From: Raillietiella orientalis
Taxonomy: Eukaryota
Assembly: GCA_036172245.1 (NCBI GenBank)
Contig: JAYWIR010000001.1
Coordinates: 10,726,001 to 10,790,000, forward strand
Direction: 5' to 3'
DNA: 64,000 nt
Below are positions 6,360 to 62,498 of this stretch, one piece after another. The notes under the pieces are model-generated. The model was not told where the DNA came from and did no database searches. It saw only the letters and a program-made list of their open reading frames with translations. Made by a program: the position numbers and the translations under genes. Each line of letters opens with the position of its first letter. The stretch's first letter is position 1.

Positions 6360-8842
6360 TCAGGGCAGCTGCATCACGCGCGCCTTCAGCTTCTCCAGCT
6401 CATCCCAGATTTCTTGCGGCAGGTCGTCTCCGACCTGCTCTTCGAAGTACTTCCGGTTTTCCTCGATCTAAGGATACAGGAAGGGGGAGAGGGTGGAGGA
6501 AGGAGGAAGGAGGGCGAGTCGGACACGGTCCCTTGGATGGCTCTGCCCTTACGTCCTCCAACCAGTAGTCCTTCGGTATCCGGAAGAGCTCCTCCAGGTC
6601 TATGTTCTTGTCTTCCAGGCCTTCCATGTTAAGGGAGTCCAACTTGGGGATGTATCCGATGCAGGTTTTCTGGGCAACGTCTTCGCCGCGCACGCGACGT
6701 ATGATCCAGTCCAGCACTCTTGAGTTCTCCCCGAATCCGGGCCACAGAAAGTTGCCCTGAAGAGAGAGGGTGAGCAAAGAGGAGGCAAAGCGAGAGAGCT
6801 CCCCAGCCCCGGGAGGGGAGGTGCCAGGGTCAGTCCACTCACCGCTTTGTCCTTGCGGAACCAGTTCACGTGGAAGATGCGGGGCAGCTTCAGCGAGGGC
6901 TTGTCCTTGAAGCTCAGCCAGTGCCTGAGGTAGTGGCCGAAGTTGTAGCCAAAGAAGGGTCGCATGGCGAACGGGTCGTGCATGATCTCCTTGCCCTGAG
7001 GGGAGGGAGAGAAGAGCAACCATCAGCTTCCGACTCTTCGTTTCTCTCCGCGTGCACGTGCAACTCACGTGAAACTCTGCTGCCGCCGTGGCCTCCGACT
7101 TCATGCACGCGGCTATAAACACCCCGTGGGTCCAATCGAAGGCCTCGTAAACGAGAGGGACGCCCGAGGGACGTCGACCGCCGAAGAGCATGGCGCACAC
7201 CGGCACGCCGTCGGGATCTTCCCAGTGGGAGTCGAGCATGGGGCACTGGGCGCACGGCGAGGTGAACCTGGAGTTGGGGTGGGCTGCGGGCTTCCCACAG
7301 CCCGGGGTCCAAGCCTCCTTCAACCACGAGGTCACGGTCACCCCCGGGAGGAGGTCCTCGCCCATGCCCTCCCAGTAGACTCCCCCGTCGCTGGTCTTGG
7401 CCACGTTCGTGAAGACCGTGTTGCGGAAGATGGTCTTCATGGCGATGGGGTTGGACTTCCACGAAGTGCCTGAGGGAAAAGATAAGGACGGAGGGAAGGG
7501 GACGATCGCTCGGGAGGCGGCGAAAAGATCAGCAGCGGGTCCGCTGCTGCTGCCACCGCTCCTTACCGGGTGCCACCCCGAAGAATCCGTTCTCCGGATT
7601 GATAGCGCGGAGCGCGCCCTGGGAGTCGAAGCGCATCCAGGCGATGTCGTCGCCCACGCAGGTCGTGTGGTACCCCTTGAGCACGGGGGTGATCATAGCC
7701 AGGTTGGTCTTGCCGCAGGCGCTGGGGAATGCCCCGGTGATGTAGCGTTTCGCTCCCGTGGGGTCGGTGATCCCCAGGATCTGCAGGATTGAAGCAGTGA
7801 GGAGGAAGCGGGGCGAGATGAGGAGGAGGACTTAAAGATGCGCGAGACGGACGAGAGATCGGGAAGAGAGGCAACGCGTCTCCCTTCTCCCTCCTCCTCC
7901 TCCTCCGCCACCGCGGCGTAGCCGCCTGACCCACCAGCATGTGCTCGGCGAACCAGCCCTCGTTCCGGGCGATGGTGGAGCCAATGCGCAGGGCGAAACA
8001 CTTCTTTCCCAGCAAGGAGTTGCCCCCATAGCCGCTGCCGAAGGACACGATCTCATCGGTGTGGGGCAGGTGCAAGACAAGGGTCTTCTCCGGATTGCAG
8101 GGCCAGTTCTGCCGCAGGGGCCGCTCCAGAGGGTAAGGCTCCCCCACGGAGTGCAGGCAGCGGACGAAGTGCCCGTCGCCAAGCAGCTGCAGGACCCGAG
8201 GACTGATCCTGGTCATGATGCGCATGCAGGCGACCACGTATGGGGAGTCGGTCAGCTCGATGCCGATCTTGGACAGCGGCGATCCCAGTGGACCCATGCT
8301 GAACGGGATGACGTGCATCGTACGACCTGGAGGAAAGGGGTGGCCGTTGCGGTCCCCCTGCTCGCGGCAGCGACCCCGCCGCCCTTCTCACCCCGCATGC
8401 ACCCGGGGAACCGTTCGTCCACGGCCTTCTTCAGGTCTGCCGGGGACAACCAGTTGCCCAGCTTCCCCTTGACTCCGGGCTTGAGGATAGGATGCGATTC
8501 CCTCTCCTCCTCGGTGCAAATGAAGGTCTTCTCTTCTACCCGGGCGACATCAGCCGGATCTGTGTGGACCAGCCAGCTGGGAAAGGGAAGAGGGGTCAGT
8601 TAAACCCCGTGGCGCGTCTCCCCCTCCCCTCACCAGTTCTCGTACTTGGGCAGGGGCTCGATGAGCCCCTGCTTCAGCATGACCTCGATGAGGAGCTTCC
8701 CCTCCGCCGGCGATCCGTCCGAGATGTGCAGGTTGTAGGGCTTGCAGAACTCGATATTCTTCGCCACGAACTCTTTTACGTTCGAGGGAAGCAGGCTGAC
8801 GTCACCGAAGACGACCGGAATGCCACAGAAGATGTTCGACAT
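6360..8842 (-). CDS. Pepck: Phosphoenolpyruvate carboxykinase, GTP-dependent
   Basis: Eight exons with GT-AG introns of 57-154 nt: 8842-8634, 8576-8392, 8326-7935, 7780-7567, 7469-7069, 6995-6843, 6756-6553, 6467-6360. Total 1866 nt = 621 aa plus stop. Diagnostic motifs are intact: [107 protein letters not shown]. Confidence 0.97.
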
Positions 8843-11800
8843 CTTGGAGCACGTGGTAGTTGTGGTGGCCAAAGGGTTGTTTTCTGTTGCTAGAAACACC
8901 GGCGGAAAATCAGCGGGGTGGAGGCCGCACCGTGGCGCCCGATACGTAGCAGGAGAGGGAGCGCCAGGGGGGGGAGGGGAAGAAGCCGAAGACAAAGTGC
9001 GGCGTGCGCAGCGATCCAGGTCAGATCCAGCGACCATCCGCCCTTCTCCCCCTCCCCAGCAGGGAAAGACGCTGCCAGGAGGATGCCGAAGCAAGGGGGC
9101 GAAAGAGAAGGGTAGGGAGAAAATCCTATGACCTCTGACCCTTCCCTCTCTCCCGTAAGTCTCCGCCCGGACGGTGTCTCTTCCGTTGCCACTACCACCA
9201 TCAGCATCACCAGCAGCAACAGATGGTCTGCGTAGAGGGAAGGAGCTGAGGTCGCAGGGACGCTTCGGGGCCGCTTTCTCTCTTGAAAGAGGCCACAGAT
9301 CCCCATCCCTCCCCTTTTCAAGGGGCCGTCGCCGCCATGTCAGACACACACGCACACAGACTGTACGTACAAGAAGGGAAGAGGCACGAGGAACCTTAGC
9401 TGCTCCCACCGGCCGCACAGGGAACCTCCGAGTGACTGGCACCTCCGAGTGGCAAAAGGCACCTTCCCGGCCTTCGCGACGCGCGCGCGCACCGCATCTG
9501 CTCAGAAGAGAGAGCGCGGCTGAGGGAAGAGGAACGGGAGGAGACGACGAAGAGACGATGGGGAGAGAGCGAGCGAGAGGTGGCGGGGGAGGACGAGGAG
9601 GAAAGGAAAAGAAGGTCGCGCTTCTCTTCCTCCTCCGATTCCTTCCCCTCCCCTTTCGCCCTTCCCGCCCGTCGTTGCAGCAGAGAGGAGGTTCGGCCGG
9701 CCGCGGGGTTTCCCACGCGGCCACCGCGCATGCGCGCGCCCGCTCCTCGACCGGATCGATTCGACGCTGCTCGAGAGGGGGCAGTGGCGAACCAGTAGCA
9801 ACTGCCGCCAGCAGACGCGCGAGCGCGTTCCTCTCCTCACCCCCTCTTCCCTTTTCCGCCGAGGCGGCTCCGGCAGCCAGCCTCCTGATCCCAGCGAGAG
9901 GAGGAAACGGAAAGTGGGTCAGGGCCAGCCCGAACAGAACCTTCCTGCTGCCCTTTTCCTCATTTTCGCCCTTGAGCAAGAATTCCCTTTGGCGTGCCAA
10001 TCACCCCCCCCAGCCCCGTCGATCTCTGTGGTGAGCAAGAGACACGGAGAGGGATGGTCCTCTTCCAGGATTGTCCTTCCTTCCCCTCGCATTCCCCCCT
10101 CCCCCTCCAAGACTTTTGGCGGCTGCACGTCCCGGGAGGAAGAAAAAAGAAAAAAGGGGACGCGGTGGGATCGAGCGGGCAAAGGAGGTGGATCCTGGAA
10201 TTCCCAGGGCTCCCTGGAACAAGCCCTCTGCTCCCCTCCCCGGACCGAGCTCTAAGGGGCTCGCTCCCCCAAGCTGATTCCTCCGGGCAAGGCACTCGCT
10301 CGCCATCCGGGGGGAGCTCAGGAGGGCTATCAAGGACATGGGATCGATCCCTCTTTGTGACATTGAAAAGGTCGGGAGGAGTAGGCGCCGACCGGCGGGA
10401 TACCCCAACGCAAGGAGACGGTCCAAGTACACCAAGCGAGGACTCTCTGTACCCTCCCTCTTTCTCCAGTGGGGAAGGAAAGGGGGACGCGGAAGACGAA
10501 AAAGACTTCAGCCAAGGAAGAGCGAAGGAAACCAACCCTGAGGGTGCTTTTGGATCGTACCCCCCTCCCCTTCACGTTCCGTGGATTCACCCCAGTCGCT
10601 GCATCCGACAGCGGCGGACGCAAGCTGCAGCTTACTGAAGGGCGGACCAAGCAGGTAGACGCGGTCTGAGGAGCGGGAGGACCCATGCAGAGTGCCCTCG
10701 GCAGTTTCATCTGGAACGGCTCCGCTGCCGGAGATGGCTTCTTCGTCCCTCTCCGTCCTCGATGCGTGGGGGGGAGGGGGATGCGAACCGGCACTGGGGA
10801 ACGAGGCAATCATCACCATCCGCGAAGGCTCCGTGGGCATCCCCTCTGCAGACCCGTCAGGGGCTCCGCGCGACGCCCCAGCGGAACGTTTCCCTTCCAG
10901 GAACGAAAACGCCAAGACTTTCCGGGGGATGAAATCTGCTGCTGCTCTCCCCTTTCCCGGGCGAAACTTCACCTTGACTCTTCGCCCGAGAGCGAGTTTC
11001 CGGGAAGCAGGTCCGCGCAAGGGGAGAACCGAGAAAAGGCCGAGGACGCGTCGAGCCAACGGCATGTCGGATGCTTGCACGGGTGCGCGGCACGCCAAGC
11101 CGTGCTTTGAAAGTCGTCCGGGATTGGATGGCGGGGGCGGGAGAAGGGGGGGGGGGGACTGCATCCCCCACTCTTGCAAACGGTGAAGACCGAGGCTTCT
11201 GACAAGCAGGCTGCATCGCCCGAACGGAGAGAGCAGGTCTCCCCCCCTGCCCCTCCCCAGAACCGAGGGGGCGCTCACACCGACTCCTGGTGCAACTCTC
11301 ACGAAAATGCTCCCTCTCTCCCCAGCACGTGCTTCCTTCGACGACTGCGAACAGATGATGCCTGGCGATGGAGACACCTCTCCCGCCTCGTTGGGTTCCG
11401 ATGCTTCTCGCTCCGAGGAGCACCCCGGCGGCCCCGGTCAGCCGGGGCGCGGCGCGCGGAGCGAAGCAGTGGCGGAGGAAGCCGCTCCTATGCATGCTGA
11501 CGGGAGGTATACTCTGTCGGAGGAGGAGGAGGAGTCAGCAGCTCGTTCACCCGTTTTGCTCACTCTTCGACGGGAAGCGCGCGGCCGGACAGCAGCAGCG
11601 GAAGTGTCGTGTCCGTCGCCTCCTTGCCCGCTGGCTTTTTTGTGTCCGATCCGCTTCCGCTGATTGTTGCAGGTGCTCCGCGTGCGAGGCTCGCCATTGT
11701 TGCTTCGCTTCGGCTCGACGCCATTTTTTTTTCTTTTCCCCCTTGTGTTTTCAGTGTCCTTCTGCAGGCAGAGAGCGTCTGCATTTTCAAGTCTCCGAGC

Positions 11801-24289: not shown

Positions 24290-27200
24290 GACGAATATCC
24301 CTGGCCCGTTGGAACGTTAACGGGCTACGGGACGTCATCAAGAGGTGAAAAATAGCGAACATCATTAAGCACTTCGATATCTGCCTACTCCAAGAAACCC
24401 ATGAGCTTTCCGTGAGGGACAGGGCAGACACCGAAGTATGCTCTGGTGGAACGCTACTTTTACAAAGTGGTGATAACCACGAGAGAGGAGTCGCCTTCCT
24501 TATACACCCCCGCCTGCTCCCCCTAGTCAAGAGATGTAGATTTGATAAGACCGGTAGAATCGGTCAGATCACGGTACCATGGTCCTGGAATATCGATCTT
24601 ACCATGACAAATATATATGCACCTCAGAAACAAGAGTGCATCGCGAACAGGGTCACCTTCATGAAGGAGGTAAAATCACGATGGATAGGTCCACCTAACC
24701 CAAGGGTGGCCCACATAGTAGCAGGGGACTTCAACACCCCCCTACATGCTGCATCGGACAAGGTGTACATACCACCCAGGAGGCTGCTAAACACGCTGGC
24801 GGGGTGGCATCTCTCCAATATTCTCTCAGGAGAGCTATGGACAGGAGAGGGCCATCGACCACATCTTCGTGGATGACCAACTACACTCGCAGGTAGGTAG
24901 AAGGGGGAGGATCCCCTCCTACCTTTCGAATCACCGGAGGATTGAGGTGGAGCTCAACCCCCGTGCTAAGTGTCCCTCCCCCCTGAAAATGTGGAGGCTG
25001 CCACTGCCCTGGCTGGAACATCCAGATACCAGGGAACTCATCAGGGACCTCATTAGGCGAACCACCAAGTCCGTCCATGATTGGGACTCCTTCAAAAGCA
25101 AAGTCGAGCGGCTGTGTAAAAGTCAGCCCACCCAAAGCCTGCCGAAAGGCTTTGGGGAAGGAGAAGATCTGCACTCCCTTTACCTGCAGACTAGAGACCG
25201 CAGCCACCATATTGATCCCAGGATAATTGCCGAATACCAGGCCAAAGCGGAGAGCCAAACCTGGCAGTCGGGGGTCACCACCCTGCTGAACGGGAGGGGT
25301 GAGCCACTATCGGACCTGGTAGACACCACGCAGGAAGTAAGTCGATTTTACATCTCTCTCTACTCCAGAAGTCCTCCGGACCAAGTAATCTTCCAATTAC
25401 TCCTACCGGAAGGTAACCCAGTAATCTCGGAAGAGGAACGGGAGAATCTAAACGAGCTATTTACTGGCGATGAAATTCGCCGTGCAATCTTATTGCTATC
25501 CGGGAAGGCACCTTGAGAGGACGGTCTTCCCGGAGAATTCTTCAAATGCTTTGCGGAAGACCTGACTTCCATGGTGCTGAAACTCGACGCGCTAATGCAG
25601 GGCACGGGAGACGTTCCTGGAAGCTTCCGCTCAGCAAAAATGAGGCTGATCCCCAAAGGGGGGGATTTAAGATTATTGAATAGCTGGCGTCCTATCACTC
25701 TGGTGAACATGGACGTCAAACTATTCTTCAAGCTGTGGACTGCACGATTAGGGACAGTAGCGGACCGATTGATCAGCTCGGAACAATCCTACGCGCTTCC
25801 CGGGTGTTCCATCGAGTCCAACCTCATGCTAGCGCAGTCCTGGTTCGGTCTACAGCATCTGCTGCAAAAAAGGAGAACCGCAACGGCATGAAGGACACCA
25901 CAAAACGAGGCTCTGGAGGGAGGCCTGGCGATTGCGGTCGATCTGCAGAAAGCGTTCGACAGTGTCGACCAGGACCTCCTTCTGCACCTCATGGGCAAAC
26001 TTGGCCTGCCTCCGATCCTTATACAATACCTACGCGCTACCTGGCTCTCTGCGAATCTAACATCATCTTTTGCGTCCGCCAGGTGCATGGCGTACCTATA
26101 AGAAAGGGGATCAGACAAGGGGATAGCCTCAGTCCGTTGCTCTTTGCCATATACTTTGAGCTGGTACTGAAGGCTTATAGATTGCCTTTCTAGACCACCT
26201 ATCCCATGGCGTCAGCCTATGCTGACGACCTGCTCAGCTTCGTGCCTCGGTTCACCCCAACCGAGAGGTTCGAATTCTTTTTGGACCTCATTCAGGAAGG
26301 GGCGAGCCTGAGAATCAACAAATCAAAGTCGACGATCAAAGTACCGTCAGCGTCGTTGTTGGCTGGGCACTCGGACTGGACGCGACTAAGTATCCCAATA
26401 CGGAAGCACCTAAGGTACCAGCGATACGACACCGCACCTAAGGTGCAAGGATTCCGTTGAGAGATTTCTCGGTTGAGGAAGCCTAGTCTGAATGCCTCGA
26501 TCGTGTAGAAAAGGCGCTGGCACCGTTCAGAGGCGGCAGGTTCTTGCTGCCCGAACAGGCCTTCATCTACAACACATACACTGCTCCCCTATTACGACCC
26601 CTCCTGTTCTCTTGCCCCCTCCCACGACGAAGGCCAAACGGAGAGAGGACCACATCCTGCGGAAGTTCTTGTGGGGAAAGGGTCGGTCCAGGGTGAAGCT
26701 GAAAAGCATCTGCTCCCCAAGGAACAGGGCCGGCTTGGGCGTCAAATCGCCCACAACCCGGCAACATGAGATATCCTTCCGAGTGCTCATGCACCACCAC
26801 CGACGGTGGAACGAGCATTGGTGTTGCCCAACAAAAGAACTTCTGAGGAGATCAACGGGCAGCCAAGGATTGGCTTCCTTGTGGTACACGACACATACAC
26901 AAGAGCCATTTACAACAACGTTGGCTATCCTCTAACGCAGCTGCGACGTCTACTCGGCAGATGCAGCTGGAAATCATGCAGAATAAGGAAGCCTGGAGCC
27001 TGGAGTCCCTAAACACATGGTTTCGGTTGCAGGGTGACCAGAACAGCCTCCCTCGCCGTCCAGTGCTCATCGGGCGAATGCCGCTCGGAGAACTCATGGT
27101 GGCCCCGGAAAGAGCACGCCGTTGGAGGAATTCCTCCCTAATCTTCTCTTGGCGGAATCAATAGAACCAAACAGACAGCCATCAGGAAGCGGCATGGGAC

Positions 27201-27950
27201 ATACTCTGCTGGATCAATGACCGGCATGTGCCCCTGCTAGCACTTAAGGCGAGTCTACTGGCCACACTTGTTGATTCCACACACATGGCAGAAGGACTAA
27301 GCCGCTGGACTGATTTTCTAGGCATTCCCCCGGAAAACTTGTAGTCCCTCAACGATATACAGACAACTCCTTGTCCTTATTGACGAGACACTACACCATC
27401 GGTTCCTCCATTGGGGACTACACACCAACGCCAGGCTGTCCCATGAAGGGTTTCTAAGGGTAGGATTTCCCCGAACTGTAGCCTCTGTGGCCGGAAGGAA
27501 ACCATGGAGCATGCACTGCTAGACTGCCCAGGAAAACGCCTCCAGTGGAGACGTCTAGCAAGAGCACTCAACTTACATAGCGACGAACCCAGGGACATCT
27601 TGTGACGCTTTTTCACGCGCAACGGGATTCCTGACGCTGCAGTGATCACGGTACTGTGCCTCATTCGAGACCTCATAAGCGCCAGAACCAAACTGGAACT
27701 GCACCAAAGGAAAGTGTCCGCGTGGTGCTTTACTATCCTACTGTTTTTTTTTTTTTTTAAAGGCCAGTGGCGACCCCCACGAGGAGATCGTTACTATTGG
27801 CCTAGGACGATGGAAATCCTTGGGTTCTTTTTTCTTCTATATGCTGTTTTTCTTTCAGCTTTTTTTTTTTTTTTAAGAGTTTTCTTTTTTTTGGTTCGCT
27901 AAGTACTTCAGAGCCGGTCGCGTGCCTCGCGGCGCACGTGGCTCTTTTTA
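24290..27950 (+). mobile_element. Degenerate non-LTR retrotransposon ORF2 (APE endonuclease, reverse transcriptase, C-terminal CCHC), L1/Tx1-like
   Basis: Motifs occur in order across frameshifts. Endonuclease: WNVNGL (24310), DICLLQETH, GVAFLI, NIYAP, IVAGDFN, IDHIFV, SNH. RT: KAP*EDGLPGEFFK, WRPITLVNMDVKLF, VDLQKAFD, GIRQGDSLSPLLF, AYADDL, LRINKSKS, followed by KFLWGK..RV. Zinc knuckle CSLCGRKETMEHALLDC at about 27477-27527, then a T-rich 3' tail. In-frame stops (e.g. 24346) and frameshifts show it is inactive. Clade assignment rests on motif style only. Confidence 0.9.
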
Positions 27951-27989
27951 AACATTAACATACTGTTTTGTTTCCACGCCTCTCCGCCC

Positions 27990-28833
27990 GCGGCAACCCT
28001 CAGGGAGGGCATGTAATTCTTCAGTGTAATTCTTCAGGATAGGGGGCACCCCGGGATGGGGGTCCGCCCTATGAATCCCGGAAGGGCTCGGAGTCCGTTC
28101 CTCTCACGCTTGGGGAGGGATCCCCCCGGACGGGGGGATCGCGCCTCCAACCCTGGTTGTCTCCGGAGGGGAATCCCGGAGGGAATTTCCTTCCTCATTC
28201 TCTCCGGAGGGACATCCCCTAATGGGGGGTGGTCCTCTCCATTTCAACTTCTCCGAAGGGAACCCGGAAAGGATCCACTTGTAGGAATTTCTTCTCCGGA
28301 GGGAACCCGCAAGGGAACCGCTCCTGTTCACTCCTCTGAAGAGAACCCCGAAGGGACACTTCCGAAACGCAGAAGGGGCGCTGCAGCTTCCCGCAGGGAA
28401 TCGCTCTCGCTTGCTTCCTTTGTGCACACTCTGTGAAGAGGCGACGACTCGGAGGGTCCCCCCCGCAACGGGGAGGGTCCGCTCCTTTGAACAACTGGAG
28501 AGGTGCCTGTGAGGGCTCTTTCTCCATCTTGAAACCGGAGGGGTCCCCCGGTGTGGGGGGGTCCGCTCTCCGTTGTACGACCGGAGGGGGAACTCCCCAT
28601 CCTTGATTCCTGGGAGGACCCGAAGGTCGACTCCCCATTGTTCCGGCCTTCATCGGGGGCCTCCCGGTTTAATCCACCGCCGGTGCCACGCCCGAATGTC
28701 TCGGCCAACCAGCGCCATTGTAGGAGAAACTCGGAACTCGACGACGCAGTGGCGTCAGAGTTTCTGCCGAAGTATTTGAACCCGCGACTCATGGTGCCAC
28801 ACGCGGAAGCCTTAACCACAAGACCTCCGATGC
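27990..28833 (-). mobile_element. tRNA-derived SINE-like repeat with internal hairpin-module array, copy 1
   Basis: Minus-strand head GCATCGGAGGTCTTGTGGTTAAGG...GGGTTCAAAT contains A-box-like and B-box motifs. Body and tail blocks are shared with 41605-42091 and 61210-61805, e.g. plus-strand TCTTCA..ATAGGGGG...CCCTATGAATCC.GGAAGG, and TCCTCTGAAGAGAACCC shared with copy 3. The tail boundary is approximate. Confidence 0.75.
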
Positions 28834-29199
28834 GGGCACTGCTTCCACTGCTTCGCCATGCCACGAGGCGATCAATACTCCCAACCGCTACCCGGGCGAA
28901 TCTGGCGGGAATTCTGCAGGATATCAATCGAAGGGGATCGGTCTAGTCAACCCACCCCAATTAACCCCCAATTCCCCCCTCCTCTCTCCCCCTCGGGCCG
29001 GCCCCAGTCCCACAGGCTAGTAACCCGACGAACTCTTCACCCACCCCCTACCCGATCCACCTGGACAAATGACGGGGAGTCCTCCCCTCCTCCTACGCAT
29101 CCAGTCACCATTAACAAGGCACACTTGTATGTTTATTGGTAAATAAACGGCCCGGCGTCACCGGGTTCAAACCCAAGCAAGGCTACCCGGGTGCAGAAC

Positions 29200-29810
29200 A
29201 CCACACTTGCAGCCACTCTCAGCACGATCCATTAAAATGGAACCAGTGATGGTCCCGCGAGATGGGAAGTATCCTGCAAGATCGCGGGAAAGAAGTAGCT
29301 GGCTTGCTAAACGGCGCGTCAACTGGCCGACTCATGTACTCTTGCCGCCCTCCCCAAAGGAATTCGTTGCTGGATTCCCTCCCTCTTCCTCCTCCTTCTT
29401 TCCTGACATTTTGTGTATTAGTCAAACTTCTATTTGGAAAAATTCAAATTGGCCCCTTCCTCCCGGAACTCCTGGGCATTCCCCTAGAAGAGGCAAAAAT
29501 ACCGCCAGTGTTTGTGGACAGCTCCACGCTTCCCCTGAAGGGGCAGGACTGGGCATTGAAGTAGTACCGGGAGATCCCATGCAACGCGCAAGTCCACCAC
29601 TAGACGAGGGGGAGTGCGACCCGGACTGTGCCAGGTGCGGGGAAATGGAAACCTTCCCGCAACTGCTGTTGGATTGTGTTGCTCTCCTGCGTGCCCGGGA
29701 ACGCTTCCCTGCAGCTCTCCCACTTCCCATGGGCAACGGCAGAGATGCCTTGCGGTGCCTCTTCGCGCGCGACTCGATGTCGCCTGCAGCTTCCTCCCTT
29801 GCAGCCCCGT
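29200..29810 (+). mobile_element. Decayed 3' fragment of a non-LTR retrotransposon (C-terminal zinc-knuckle region)
   Basis: ORF 29207-29812 contains PDCARCGEMETFPQLLLDC..L..AR, resembling the C-x2-C...ET..H...C knuckle at the end of LINE ORF2 with the His lost. Confidence 0.5.
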
Positions 29811-32800
29811 GATGCCTTCGTGGGATCGTGGAGGAGAGAAGCCGCGCCGAAAGAAGCCAGTCGAATGGTGACGTCATCGCAACCGTCTGCCTCCTTCGTG
29901 TGGAAGGCGACAAGATGGCCACATCTCTGTTAACAAAAGGAGGAAGTTACCAGCATCCTCCAGAGGATGCTGAGAACTCCAGGAAGAAATCTGTGATCCC
30001 TTCCCTTCCCTCCCAACATTTTTTTAAACTGAACTCTTGGACCGAACGCTGTGGATCCTAGGATATGTAACGGGAGCAGGAAGGGGGTGGTGGAAGTGAG
30101 TGACCCCGAAGCGCGTGGGTCTCTCCGACTCACAGTGACAGCAGCGCCTCGGCGCGCAAGGCTCCGGGAACATTGCGCCGCCTGCTCTTTGCCTTCTCTG
30201 CCGAGACGTTTGACTCGCTGATCTGCTATCGCCATGGAGACGTCAGCAGGTGATCTGCTTCTTCTGCAGGTTACTTTCAGCACCCACGAAGAAATGATGG
30301 ATGCTCTGACGAAGATTGAACGTTGGTTCCGTCTTCACTTCTTCATCATCGCGCCAACCATCGCACCATCTGGTTGCTATGGAATCTCTAGTTTCCTTCT
30401 CCTGTTAGCTGCGCATCCTGGGATCCACAGCATCCAGCCCAGGTACTCCATCCTCTTCGTTTCGTCCTGGTCGGTTGACGATCCTTGCGGGGTCTTCCCG
30501 TCCTCCTTTCTTCTCCTTCTCTGCTTCCCTGTTTCCCTGGATACTCGCTTCGGAGCGAATTTTTCCTCTTCTCCCTCCGAATAAATTGGGATTCCCTCCT
30601 CCCTCATACAGGGGTGTCAGGGAACCACGCTGCTCGCGCCGTTTCCTTGTTCCTCCAGAGGCTTTGCGCGCTCGTCCCTTCTCATCGCGTGAAAGTCCAG
30701 TCTGGGAACGCCTCCCTTCCTCGCTCTGACCTTGAGAAAGGGGAACGGGGATGACGGCACCATCTTTCGACGAAAATGTTCCAGGACATTTGAGCGAAGA
30801 AGCATCATCGAAAGACACGTCGGCCGCAGCCTCTGTTCAGCCGAGGAGCGCTCTCCTTCCTTCCACCATACTTCACCTCGTGCCCTGCTGCCCTGCAGGT
30901 AGGGGGAGAGGGAACGGCGGATGGAGATGCGAAAAGGGGGAGGAAGGGAGGAGGAAAAGGAAGGGAAGAGGAGAAAGAAGAGGAAAGGAGGAGAGAAGGT
31001 CATCCAGGAGAAACTTCGGCAGGGTCTCACGCGTGGTGCGGACTCCGAGCAGCTTCATCTGATAAGGAAAAGTGTCAAGAGACAGGCACTCACGACATCA
31101 AAAATCATCTCAAGGTCATCTCATGCTCATCCGTAGGGAGTCTGAGAGATGGGGAGGGGACCTCTTCGCAGGGAAGATGGGGGCTGCTTGAAATGCGGTA
31201 GCCCTGCCTGCTGCCTCTGACAGGCGCATCGCTACCGGTGAAGTTGCAGCTGGAGCTTGTTAGTCCTCAGAAGTGAAGAAGAACGGAAGCTAGAATCGAA
31301 CCTTGAAGATTTGCAACGGGCGTGCAAGGAGGCATGCGTGGAAGTCGCCATGGTTACGTGGCTGGTTTCCACCTCCCTTTCTCCTTCATTCCTTCCTGGA
31401 AATGGAGATCGATCAGACGGTCCTGTCGGAGATGGCGCCGATTCAAGGAAATCCAATAGGGTGGTGGTCATTAAGGGCGGATCACTCTTCTCCACCTTGC
31501 AGAAGAAGAGAACGCATGGAAGTCCCGCGATTTCCAGCTGAGGGATGCGGCGGCCATGGGGCAGCTACATGCAGATCCGACGGCAACTTCAGACAACCAC
31601 TCTTGTAGGAGGCCCCGAGTTCCTTCGGTCCGTTTCAAGCGCCCACCACCGCCTCCCGGTGGGGGAAGACAAAGGAGAGCGGTCGGATTTCCGACTTCCA
31701 GCCTGCTCCTTTGAGGAGTCGCGAACTGCTTGCTGGCTCAGGTGGGAGGCGGGCCGCATTTGGCCCATCTCCGCCTGGATACTGGACACCCTCCGTGCCT
31801 CCTGCCTCTCTGTGGGAGAGGAGGCTGAGGAAGGGTTCCGAATTCCCGTCCATTTGGCTGCTGCCGCCCACTTCCCCGTCCTCTCCCTCCGGAGTTCGAG
31901 AAAACCCATGCTTCATTCCTGCCATCTAGCCGAAGATATGGAAACTTAGAAAGGGTTGGATAATCTGACGAGAGATGGTATAAAACTGCGGTTCGCGCTC
32001 TTCTCAAGGCCTTCCACGTCGGTTTTGCACGAACATTTCGGCCTGTGGAAGCGACGGAAGTCGCTGCAGAATCCTTTTTAGGTGGTGCTTGGAGGTCTAT
32101 TCGTCGTTCTTCTCCCGTTCGTCCTCCCCTGCATTTCCAGAAGTTCTTCGGATGGTCTCACTAGCTGTGTTCAAGTCCCTTCTCCCTGCAAGTCAGGTCG
32201 TCGTTCCATCTCTCCTTTTTTTTCAAGTTTTCTTTTTTTCTTTTCTCTCCCCTCCCCATCCTGTGGTGCATACAGCAGGCAGAGGAGGAGATGCGAGCCC
32301 CCACCGCTGTTGCCCGAGCCGCAACCTCCCGGCGTGCCGTCACTCCTTTGTAAGAGCCTCCTCAAGGGGCTTCGAGACCGGCTACACGGAGCCGGTGAGC
32401 AGAGGAAGGAGGGAGGGGAACGATCTTGAAACGTGGGTCACTCCGGCTGACATTGACGGAGAGCGGCAGCAGCGTCTCTGCGCGCGAGCAAGGTTCCGGG
32501 AACTTTGCGCCTCCTTCTCTTCGCCTTCTCGTCCGCGCTGCTGTCTCCGTGATGTCAGCAAGCATCAGGGTGCCGCTGGCCTCTCGCGACCCTGAGCTAT
32601 CTATGTTCCATCGCCGTTGTGGGCCGCGGGCTCGGGTGCCTGCCAGAATTCCCCCCTCCCGTCCCGCGACGCATTCCGGAAGGAGCCGCTTGCAGGATGA
32701 GCGCGGAGGGCAGCGCCCGAGGGAGGAAGAGGGGGGCGGTGGTAGGGCAGACGGGCAGGCGCAGGAGCGGGGCTCTTCCTGGATCGACTGGCAGAGCTGG

Positions 32801-41521: not shown

Positions 41522-41604
41522 TCCGTCTCCTGTACCAGCCCTCTGATGGCCGCCTGCCTCCCTTTTTTCTTTCTAGTTCGCCCCGTAGGGGGAGAGGGGT
41601 CACG

Positions 41605-42091
41605 AAGCTCTTTGATGCTGCCCACGCACCCAGGAGTGCGTGTGAACTCTTCAAGTTATAGGGGGCAACCCCGTAGGGATCACCCTATGAATCCAGGAAG
41701 GCTCTGGAGGAAGGAGAAAGACCTCCGTTCCTCCCTTACTCTTCGGAGGAAAGCCCGATGGGAACCTTCGTCCTGATTAATACCCTCCCGGGGCATCAAC
41801 CAACTCCATGGTACGGTTCCATTTTCACAACCGGAGGGGCAACCCCGAAGGAAAACGGCCCTCTGACTCGTGGAAGGATCCCAGAGAGTCAGCTTCCAAC
41901 CCCGGCCACTCATCGGGGACATCCAAGGGGTTTCCGGCTCCCATCAGTGCCGCATCCGAAGTCCATGACCCAACCAGAGAAAGGGGGGGACTCGAAAACC
42001 ACGATGGCTTCGATGCTTCCCCGGGCGAGATTCGAACCCGCGACGCTCGGTTCGGCGCGCGGAGAGAACGCAGCCACACGGCCGCCAACGC
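41605..42091 (-). mobile_element. tRNA-derived SINE-like repeat with internal hairpin-module array, copy 2
   Basis: Head GCGTTGGCGGCCGTGTGG...GGGTTCGAATC (B-box). Shares the ATAGGGGG...CCCTATGAATCCAGGAAGGCT block with copies 1 and 3, and the CCGGCC..TCATCGGGG...CCAACCAG block most clearly with copy 1. Confidence 0.75.
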
Positions 42092-43276
42092 AGAGGAGGA
42101 TCACATCCATGTGAGGATTTGAGGCCGAGAAGATGTTCCGTGTTTCCAGGTCACAGGAGACAAAGCTCAGGGCCGCGATTCGAGCCCCGGACGAGGGACG
42201 TTCCGAGCGGCGCTGACGCCTCTGGGCAGTGTTTCAAAGGGCCTCCTCGAAGTCCCGTGAAAGCTCCACCTGAGTCAGCTTATATCTCCTTCTTTCCCGA
42301 CCCCTTCGTGGCTCCAGGATTTTCGGATCAAGTCACGTGGTGAAGAAGGAAACGAGTCCTCGATAGTCGCGTGGGCGGTCAGAAAAAAGGGGGCCGACGT
42401 TCCATCCTGCTTGCCGAGAGCACGCTGTCCCTCCAGCGTGCGCTCCGCAGGGCCTTCCACCCCTTCTAGGAGGCAGAGACGATGACATGGGGAGATTTGC
42501 AGGAGCGCGTTCTCCGGGAACGGGTCCATGTTTTCGCATTCCGCTACGCCCGGCGATCTTTCCGTGGAATCCCCGACGACCAGCACCCGAAAGTGGCAGC
42601 AGCCTCTACTTCGAGGGCGACTTCGCTCTGAAGCCAGTCAGTGCCATGACCCCAGTAGAACAATGTTTCTGGCGACGGTGGCTTGCAATTCTTTCCTTGT
42701 TCTCCCTAGAGCATCCCCAACCTTCCCATCTTCCCTCTGTTCTCTTCCTCTGTCTCGGATGACTCCCATCTCGAAGTCAGCCAAGGGGACCCCTTACTTT
42801 GGTGCGTTCGCTCGCTTGTCCTCCTCCTTCGCGGTATGGATCCCACCAGCACTCATACTGATGGATTCTCTTGCTTGCTTTGACCGTCTCCAGCGTAACC
42901 TCTAGAGGGGCCAATGGGATATCAGTGACCACTCTCCTACCCTCTTTTTTTACCCAGTTTTGTCGGGGCATTTCTTATTAAACAAAAAATAATAAAAGTC
43001 CACTAAAATGGTCAATAGCGATGAGACACTTGGCAGAATAAAACCGTAAATAAGTAGGGAAGGGGAGCGATCCAGCTGCTCTGTAGGCACAAGAACGCTC
43101 CTCTGAACACTCTCGCCTCTGATACCATCGTGCGAGGAAGAACTTTGCCGTCGACTCACCCTAAGGGAGGTCGGGGGGAGGGAGGAACACAAGAAAAAAA
43201 CTTTTCCCTATTCCCAGAAAATCTCAGGTGGACTTCTGCTAGGCCAGGAGCAGTGATTTTGTTGCGTCCGTTTCAG

Positions 43277-53439: not shown

Positions 53440-54910
53440 GGCGCTCCCCCACACCTGTTTTTGTGTGTCATCCTTGCGCAGGGGCCATGCTAATCTTCTC
53501 TGTATGGTTCCAATTTCAGTATATGTACAGCCGAAGCGTGTACACAGCGTAGTCAGTGTTTTTGCTTGCCCTTCCCCTTATTCGGTGAAGATCCGACTGC
53601 AGCGCTTCCTAAGGAAAGCCTTGTGGGGTGCTGCAAGGTCCCGGATCCGACTGAAAGACCTGATGGCACCGCTCCCGGATCTTGTGGATGGTTAGACATC
53701 TTGACTATCCACAAGATCATGTTGCAAGTGCAGTTCTGACTCTTGCCCCTCTGTGGCAGGTTGCAGACTTGCCTCTGGTGTGCTCCGGCACGCCACATCC
53801 TCCGGCGATGTGCAGAAAGCGCAGGACTTCTCCCGCTGCTGCCGTGCAACCTACGCAGGAAGACTGAATTTGACTACTCCCTGAGGCATCTGTCCTCACT
53901 TCTGCTAGCTCATCCGTGGATCTCCTGCCGCCCCAAAAACTGGAACGGCCGGCGGCAAGAGAAGCTGGGGTCCCGGATTGCCACTTTGGAAGTGCGCCCA
54001 GAGGAACTGCGTCCGCTGAGGAAACTCTCATGCAAGCCACTGGGATATCTTTTGCAGGACTGGACGCAGTGGTCCAGGGTAGCCGTCAGCTCTGCCTGCC
54101 CTCCGGACAAACGATGACAGCAGCCAACCGACAGGGTGGGAGTTGTCCTGCAGCATGGCAGGGGACGAGGAATTCCTCCCGATGGTTGCAAGACGGTGAG
54201 ATGGACGACGCCACTCCTCGTTTTCGGGCGAAAAGACTCCGGCGGAGTGACCTGCTCGGTGTGCCCCCCTTCCCCCCGCACTCGCAGCCCCTCTGCGTGT
54301 GGACACCTCCGTGTTCCTGATCCATTGGAAACCGCAGGATGTTCTACTGCTTGTTCACTGGGAACTCCAGCGCAACCAGCGCAGGCTTCTGGTTTCCTGG
54401 GGAGAGTGGTGTCCCCGAACTGTTTGAGGTGAGGAGCGATAGGATCGTTCCCGCATCTCCTGTTGGACTGCGGTGCCCTGGAAAACATGTGGCGGAGGCT
54501 CCTTCGGGCGGTCCGTCGACCGCAGGAGGACTCGCTTCTTCACCGGAGGCGGGCTGAAGACAGATGCTGTGATCGCTAAGAACTGTTGCACCCGCGCCAT
54601 AGTGACAGCCCTCCATTTGTCGGAGTTTCTCGTTCGCAGTGAGAGGAGGCCACCAGCCTGGCAACCGCCTTCATGAGGATGGCTGCAAGGTGATCTCACT
54701 GCCAGAAGAGGTCGTCAGGGAGATCGCCATAGCTGCTTCTAGGAAGGAAGGAACAAATCATACCGCCCCTGTCATCACCCTCCCGTCTTTTTTCTATCTG
54801 TTTGTTGTTCCTCCCTTCCGCTTCTGACTCCTCTGGAAGCCGGCAATCCCCTGTTGTTGGCAGTGCCAGTGGTCATTCCCAACGAACTTCGTTTTTTTTT
54901 TGTTTTTTTA
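53440..54910 (+). mobile_element. Probable decayed LINE 3' portion (RT thumb / RNase H / zinc-knuckle remnants)
   Basis: RLQRFLRKALWG (about 53600), QW..(G)..A RNase-H-like remnant (about 54070), SPLC/ACG...LETA..C knuckle remnant (about 54290-54350), and a T-rich end at about 54890-54910. Motifs are fragmentary. Confidence 0.35.

Positions 54911-55768: not shown

Positions 55769-62498
<6,730 letters not shown>

Follow-up and report, generated by a model that had tools for sequence, protein, structure and literature searches.

What kind of element does a chain of small hairpins in animal DNA belong to? The question is raised by a 64,000-nucleotide stretch of the Raillietiella orientalis genome (contig JAYWIR010000001.1, positions 10,726,001 to 10,790,000; this whole stretch is the window analysed here, and all coordinates are counted from its first letter), in which, by sequence reading, about 13 short GC-rich stem-loops with A/T-richer linkers between them follow one another on the minus strand from 28640 to 28040. 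An earlier note on this DNA had described a chain of 12-13 hairpin modules behind a tRNA-like head for RNA polymerase III (Pol III) and had proposed it as an undescribed system in its own right. The chain is present, folds better than shuffled sequences, and all the motifs, cores and linkers quoted for it were found on reading. The stand-alone system is not what it turned out to be, as a dispersed SINE-like repeat (SINE, short interspersed nuclear element) occurs in three copies in the window, and the array is the body of one of them. In our judgement the array is probably the variable body of one copy, c1, of a tRNA-derived SINE, that is, of a non-autonomous retroposon.

The evidence that carries this reading is the repeat family itself. 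BLAST of positions 27901-29000 against the window revealed related stretches near 61.3-61.4 kb and 41.6-41.7 kb, and BLAST, alignment and nhmmer together define three copies, all on the minus strand and with unrelated flanks:

Copy c1, about 27863-28840, minus strand: about 1 kb long, with a body of 525 nt
Copy c2, 61120-61810, minus strand: body of 284 nt; nhmmer E = 1.3e-205 with a profile that includes c2 itself
Position of c2, from the flanking exons: intron of a synaptotagmin-1-like gene, in sense orientation, 10-30 nt 3' of the splice donor
Copy c3, 41555-42100, minus strand: body of 169 nt; nhmmer E = 1.7e-130 with a profile that includes c3 itself

Identity between copies is 69-83%, the range also given by BLAST for c3 against c2, and the stretch 27863-27920 of c1 is 79% identical to 61120-61177 of c2 (BLAST). 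Many indels separate the three in the alignment, and in BLAST their homology is bounded sharply at both ends, at the head and at the A-rich end. The nhmmer search with the family profile gave three full-length matches and otherwise only two matches in the window, with E = 2.1 and 3.4. The order of parts is common to all copies and reads, from 5' to 3', a head, a linker ending in GGGTCCTCCCA, the hairpin body, the box CCTTCCNGGATTCATAGGG that opens the tail hairpin, CTGAAGAG, a second hairpin and an A-rich end. In c1 these parts are the following:

28765..28837, minus strand: tRNA-like head, alignable with those of c2 and c3; its B box, GGTTCAAATAC at 28782-28772, is degenerate
28611..28764, minus strand: linker with conserved columns in the alignments; its box GGGTCCTCCCA at 28621-28611 precedes the variable body
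28086..28610, minus strand: variable body, 525 nt, about 12 hairpin modules of the form GGAG-N-GG-(N)-C-run/loop/G-run-(N)-CC-CTCC(GGAG)
28039..28085, minus strand: tail box CCTTCCNGGATTCATAGGG and hairpin ATAGGG..CCCTAT
27863..28038, minus strand: 3' region, with a 13-nt unit tandemly duplicated (two copies) at 28012-28037 (Tandem Repeats Finder, TRF) and a hairpin at 27910-27945
27860-27899, minus strand: A-rich end, GCGAACC-A8-G-A4..A15

The tail box, which reads CCCTATGAA on the plus strand, occurs three times, once per copy, and the outer stem of the ATAGGG..CCCTAT hairpin is invariant in all three; all five occurrences of CTCCGGAGG fall in the copies, and c1, c2 and c3 all have A-rich 3' ends of the form GCGAAC(T/C)A(n). 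Used as a search pattern, the 19-nt tail box was found at 15 metagenome loci, at 3 loci in bacterial metagenome-assembled genomes and in no viral contigs. The 15 metagenome loci were rejected as relatives and are regarded as chance matches, the family profile fitting only one of them, and that one only over 29 nt around the pattern.

Two local observations can be placed beside these copies. The intron that hosts c2 runs on the minus strand from an exon ending in ..LGRLQYK (61842) to an exon starting with LEYDFNNS.. (about 60190), and within c2 a perfect 12-nt inverted repeat (61266-61277 and 61497-61508) joins the tail hairpin to the mid-body palindrome CCCCCTAGGGGG; it could reflect long-range pairing or be the trace of a template switch. 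Just 3' of c1, within 27744-27874, a T15 run (A15 on the minus strand) recurs identically at a distance of 101 nt; the segment between the two runs, which has no other match in the window, may prolong c1 at its 3' end or represent a small insertion of its own.

That the array should instead be a protein-coding sequence, a repetitive exon rich in Gly, Pro and Arg, is hardly credible. Open frames of 139-204 codons do run over it (28107-28649 and 28331-28942 on the minus strand, 28017-28433 on the plus strand), but the high GC content of the window makes stop-free frames common (286 with 110 codons or more), and none of these three open reading frames (ORFs) over the array of c1 contains a Pfam domain. 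The modules, of irregular length (25-35 nt) and spacing and without a 3-nt periodic repeat, and the many indels between the copies also argue against coding.

Like a SINE, the copies are dispersed, end in an A-rich stretch and have no coding capacity, and they carry a head whose likeness to a tRNA is below threshold but non-random. When ARAGORN was run at 90% thresholds, only three matches were returned for the window, two of which are the 5' ends of c2 and c3; the third lies inside an ORF of a long interspersed nuclear element (LINE). The heads so detected, and the best candidate for an insertion mark, are:

61729-61809, complementary strand: head of c2 (ARAGORN, 90%)
42017-42100, complementary strand: head of c3 (ARAGORN, 90%)
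28861..28873, minus strand: candidate 5' target-site duplication of c1, GATCGCCTCGTGG; its partner at 27777-27789 is identical at 12/13 positions

Within the head, a T-arm/B-box-like GGTTCGAATC is matched exactly in c3 and only in degenerate form in c1 and c2, and the A box is matched by eye only at about 8/11 positions. Runs of four T, of which about one would be expected by chance, are absent from the sense strands of c1 and c2, which is at most compatible with read-through by Pol III. In the mechanism proposed for such a SINE, the tRNA-like head would act as an internal promoter, Pol III initiating at its A and B boxes, and the transcript would take in the GC-rich structured body and finish in the A-rich end. 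The AUAGGG..CCCUAU hairpin, the CUGAAGAG box and the second hairpin, which together form the 3' tail, would be the likely handle for the reverse transcriptase of a partner LINE, and insertion would occur by target-primed reverse transcription. Transcription by Pol III and dependence on a LINE are taken over here from what is generally known of SINEs.

Several observations weigh against this assignment, and the strand symmetry of folding described below belongs with them. The earlier note had seen a tRNA-like Pol III head, and a head does lie on the minus strand, those of c2 and c3 accounting for two of the three ARAGORN matches at 90%; its likeness to a tRNA is below threshold, as ARAGORN at default thresholds found no tRNA in the window and a search of the window against Rfam (E <= 10) gave no tRNA match. 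The head of c1 is matched by ARAGORN only at 70% thresholds, at which the window yields 300 matches, and is recognisable by its homology to the heads of c2 and c3 alone. The sense strand of c3 contains two T4 runs. The candidate duplication of c1, found as the longest shared word and extended by eye, is weak, and its partner lies 70 nt past the A15 run rather than abutting it; the corresponding words in the other copies are a 9-mer in c3 and only 7-mers in c2. No LINE carrying the tail of the family was found in the window by profile and tail comparison, and the decayed LINE next to c1 (24349-27602, plus strand) has only A/T runs in common with the SINE tails, its 3' end being unrelated, so that it was rejected as the partner. 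Finally, c1, with its length of about 1 kb, is long for a SINE and exceeds the typical length of these elements, and the copies examined are a small sample, three from a single window.

These points also feed a rival explanation, according to which the repeat is dispersed but is not a Pol III SINE. Its likeness to a tRNA would then be spurious, the copies would be fragments of another class, either a longer retroelement (its internal or 3' portion) or a non-autonomous element of a different kind, and the hairpins would be quasi-palindromes at the DNA level that grow and become symmetrical by slippage and hairpin-templated repair. Heads below the default tRNA thresholds and unclear target-site duplications are what this explanation expects. 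Against it, two of the three sub-threshold ARAGORN matches in the 128 kb of strand searched coincide with the exact 5' ends of c2 and c3, homology breaks off abruptly at both the head and the A-rich end, and terminal inverted repeats are absent from all three copies. We consider it unlikely, while granting it some chance of being right.

Other mobile-element identities were also tried. A miniature inverted-repeat transposable element or another foldback DNA transposon was rejected on that same absence of terminal inverted repeats, and a Helitron, which would show a 3' hairpin followed by CTAG or CTAA, was dropped on reading of the sequence because the flanks are A-runs. A ribozyme-bearing retroelement of the hammerhead type, suggested by the resemblance of CUGAAGAG in the tail to CUGANGA, was rejected after searches for Rfam ribozymes gave no match either in the window (E <= 10) or over 26000-31000 (E <= 1).

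The stem-loops read in the array of c1, inside 28040-28640, are the following, with the tail hairpin last:

Module m0, 28636-28612, minus strand
Module m1, 28598-28581, minus strand
Module m2, 28571-28537, minus strand
Module m3, 28525-28497, minus strand
Module m4, 28485-28451, minus strand
Module m5, 28418-28381, minus strand: two weak hairpins
Module m6, 28363-28338, minus strand
Module m7, 28324-28298, minus strand
Module m8, 28276-28251, minus strand
Module m9, 28240-28206, minus strand
Module m10, 28194-28165, minus strand
Module m11, 28148-28114, minus strand
Module m12, 28101-28080, minus strand
Tail hairpin, 28072-28039, minus strand

The commonest scheme of a module is GGAG, one spacer base, GG, 0-2 bases, a C-run, a loop of 3-7 nt, a G-run, 0-2 bases, CC and CTCC, with stems of 8-14 bp. 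The CTCC that ends a module often runs straight into the GGAG of the next one, which creates an 8-nt palindrome, CTCCGGAG, at the junctions. The motif [CT]CGGAG[GA]G has 7 of its 19 window matches inside the 601 nt of the array. The units are thus consecutive, as the earlier note had claimed in calling them tandem, but they are not periodic: TRF at a score of at least 30 reports no tandem repeat in 28040-28640, and autocorrelation of the array reveals no unit period, being significant only at lags 1, 2 and 74 (z 2.65). Because both analyses show that units of constant period are lacking, a minisatellite or other regular tandem repeat was rejected.

The array folds better than chance. Against 20 dinucleotide shuffles the fold of the whole array has z = -2.5 on the minus and -2.8 on the plus strand, and with the pair span restricted to 46 nt the local fold reaches z = -2.98 and -3.20, with none of 100 shuffles equally stable; the comparison with shuffled controls that had been proposed as a check on the hairpin claim therefore comes out in its favour, with z about -3. 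After regression on GC content, the array ranks first on the plus strand and fourth on the minus strand among 317 sliding 600-nt windows, and hairpins of the GGAG..CTCC type with a folding energy of -12 kcal/mol or lower occur at 3.6-4.0 per kb in the copies vs 0.35 per kb elsewhere. The bodies of c2 and c3 have weak local-fold z values (-1.1 and -1.9 sense, -0.7 and -0.6 antisense). A cluster of microRNA (miRNA) hairpins was rejected, since the stems are of 8-14 bp vs the ~22 bp or more of such hairpins and no miRNA model matches the array.

How the body came to differ in length between copies can be read from the modules. Two neighbouring segments of c1, 28293-28363 (82% identity) and 28170-28273 (70%), match one and the same segment of c2, 61339-61443 (BLAST), so that a unit of two modules is single in c2 and double in c1; a four-way alignment of this unit (twice from c1, once each from c2 and c3) confirms the homology. 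About 190 nt of c1, comprising modules m2-m5, have no counterpart in c2 and c3 in the alignment. Within c1, self-BLAST finds module paralogs with 69-81% identity over 26-80 nt, and this resemblance indicates that the array grew by duplication followed by divergence and that module number varies in the family. Variants of GGUUCCC-UUCG-GGGUUCC are present in m6, m7 and m8 of c1, in a module of c2 near 61345 and in a module of c3 near 41845, and this sequence looks like the ancestral unit. In the proposed scheme, the body modules would derive from GGAG-C-GGUUCCC-UUCG-GGGUUCC-CUCC-GGAG and would have multiplied by repeated duplication, both of single modules and of two-module units of ~80-90 nt, which would explain the body lengths of 525, 284 and 169 nt. 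The junction palindrome CUCCGGAG may have served as microhomology for slippage, unequal exchange or template switching.

A further question is whether base pairing in the modules is under selection at the RNA level. MAFFT fails to align the arms of the modules in register, and an arm-swap test was used in place of a covariance model. It covered 13 modules chosen by their clamps, nine from c1 and two each from c2 and c3, leaving out m1, m5, m8, m12, the tail hairpin and the other hairpins of c2 and c3. On the minus strand the native arms fold with a mean of -14.35 kcal/mol vs -11.6 +/- 0.7 for permuted ones, and 0 of 5000 permutations was as low. The plus strand gives an equal outcome (-14.88 vs -11.9, again 0/5000), and the modules of c1 even fold better on it, their summed energies being -154.9 vs -138.1 kcal/mol on the minus strand. 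This strand symmetry, together with the better folding of c1 on the plus strand, fits poorly with a simple selection on the sense RNA; it also counts in favour of the reading of the hairpins as DNA-level quasi-palindromes. Moreover, the own partner ranks first in both directions in only 3 of the 13 modules on the minus strand, so that few modules carry the arm-swap signal and most arms are interchangeable C-run/G-run hairpins.

Nearly all cores follow the one scheme GG-(N)-C-run/loop/G-run-(N)-CC, with run length and loop as the main differences, and in several modules the two arms carry identical bases at facing positions (A opposite A, UU opposite UU), which is expected from direct repetition of GGNNCCC and not from complementary evolution, and which again speaks for the non-SINE explanation. 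RNAalifold on the 13 modules finds only 7 generic pairs, those of the clamp and of the CCC/GGG core, with a covariation term of about zero. The claim that pairing is kept while sequence varies is true only weakly, the cores being so alike. In the second module of the four two-module units, the inner core does vary in sequence and length and still folds in every unit (-13.5 to -19.3 kcal/mol).

Consensus folds across the three copies give no clear gain over column-shuffled alignments, with z from -1.0 to -2.35. For the tail, z is -2.0 on the sense strand (5/100 shuffles as good) and -2.35 on the antisense strand (3/100); for head and linker, the values are -1.2 (3/40) and -1.0 (8/40). RNAalifold pairs 85% of the cells of head and linker, with 20 double-change pairs vs 4-9 in slid controls. 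These pair counts were discounted as evidence, as the structure was fitted to the same three sequences and the column-shuffle z is only -1.2.

The loops are a feature in which the strands differ. The earlier note had placed c(UUCG)g loops on the strand of the head, and they are indeed enriched there: CTTCGG occurs 8 times in the 2,235 nt of sense strand of the copies (3.58 per kb, vs 0.49 per kb outside, ~7-fold) and once on the antisense strand, and three of the occurrences on the minus strand lie in the array. The eight were in part inherited through module duplication and are not independent events. This enrichment on one strand argues against quasi-palindromic DNA as the whole explanation of the repeat. 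G-U pairs in the module folds have a bias of their own, with 1 on the minus and 8 on the plus strand in c1, and 8 on the minus and 1 on the plus strand in c2 and c3; such opposite signs point to transitions that were biased by strand and arose once the copies had inserted, and less to an RNA constraint shared by them. A mutation bias linked to transcription may be considered here; the intron around c2 is transcribed, and c2 has the sense orientation in it.

We regard it as about equally likely that selection on the SINE RNA has preserved the stems and that they are by-products of palindromic DNA. A more specific proposal sees in the chain a selected modular RNA platform of the SINE transcript, in which the GGAG-clamped hairpin, ancestrally capped by cUUCGg, would be the unit bound by a LINE protein or a host RNA-binding protein, the CUCCGGAG junctions would pair transcripts with one another, and module number would tune retroposition or a recruited host function. 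We give it a small chance. A slender one is left for the reading of the earlier note, that of a selected structured RNA that would serve as a multivalent scaffold for proteins or be cut into small RNAs, with a function beyond or independent of retroposition. The excess of hairpins, the arm-to-arm fit, the cUUCGg enrichment on the sense strand and the second-module core that diverges yet folds are in its favour. However, the roughly 3-fold variation in module number and the 69-83% identity of copies with A-rich ends are those of a transposon and not of a conserved RNA gene. Nor do the consensus folds of tail and of head and linker, the covariation term of about zero or the lack of strand preference in folding support it; precursors of the Dicer type need longer stems than the 14 bp reached here at most, and no Rfam family matches the copies.

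As a tRNA-derived SINE, the family can be set beside known systems. The division of SINEs into head, body and tail, and the role of the tail in recognition by LINE reverse transcriptases, are treated in passages of PMC11481361. The present repeat shares with tRNA-derived SINEs a tRNA-like 5' head with a B box, a non-coding body, a 3' tail hairpin with an A-rich end, and diverged dispersed copies, one of them intronic; its body sets it apart, being made up of chained GC-rich stem-loops that differ about 3-fold in number from copy to copy. In primates, the SVA element has an internal region amplified in tandem, its variable-number tandem repeats (VNTR). In squamates, parts of SINEs have given rise to tandem repeats (PMC11481361). 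As in these two cases, an internal part has been amplified here and the copies differ in length, whereas the units are diverged (69-81%), irregularly spaced, silent in TRF and each a hairpin. In stringent LINE/SINE pairs, a 3' stem-loop is recognised (PMC5135761). The ATAGGG..CCCTAT hairpin just upstream of the A-rich end lies where a partner reverse transcriptase would bind; unlike in those pairs, the window yielded no LINE that shares this tail. Full-text searches of the literature brought up no description of a SINE with a body of variable hairpin-module number; the family may already be catalogued. Two features of it are unusual: the body, with its diverged hairpin modules in varying number, and the 1-kb length of c1.

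As it stands, the result is one of annotation: a SINE family in a GC-rich, arthropod-like genome, with an expandable body of chained hairpins and one copy beside a splice donor of a synaptotagmin gene. If copies across the genome were to keep their pairing by compensatory change, the family would represent a natural retroposon RNA built from repeated structural modules, and would offer a handle on the function of the SINE body, which is an open question for most SINE families.

The surroundings of the repeat have a metazoan content and a GC content of about 58%. A compact, GTP-dependent phosphoenolpyruvate carboxykinase (PEPCK) gene with few short introns lies at 6400-8770 on the minus strand, the synaptotagmin-1-like gene is also on the minus strand, and an ORF with an immunoglobulin domain is present in the window as well. 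Arthropods, mostly insects, provide the best protein matches, with 61-69% local identity for PEPCK and ~70% for synaptotagmin including a read-through intron; among the matches of the PEPCK and synaptotagmin fragments in the protein collection there was no close relative. The LINE at 24349-27602 on the plus strand, of the non-LTR type (lacking long terminal repeats), is decayed and frameshifted, has its endonuclease, reverse transcriptase (in three pieces) and zf-RVT domains in the right order, all under the Pfam gathering scores, and stops some 120-260 nt short of the 3' end of c1. Upstream of the PEPCK coding region, at 9553-9676 and on both strands, there is a long purine-rich/pyrimidine-rich hairpin with a fold of -78.7 kcal/mol (z = -2.3, 6/200 shuffles as good), which draws many weak miRNA-model matches on both strands, far under their gathering scores. 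Finally, a U6 spliceosomal small nuclear RNA gene is located at 53454-53543 on the minus strand, with 84 bits vs a gathering score of 44 (E = 6.5e-20) over model positions 1-88 of 105.

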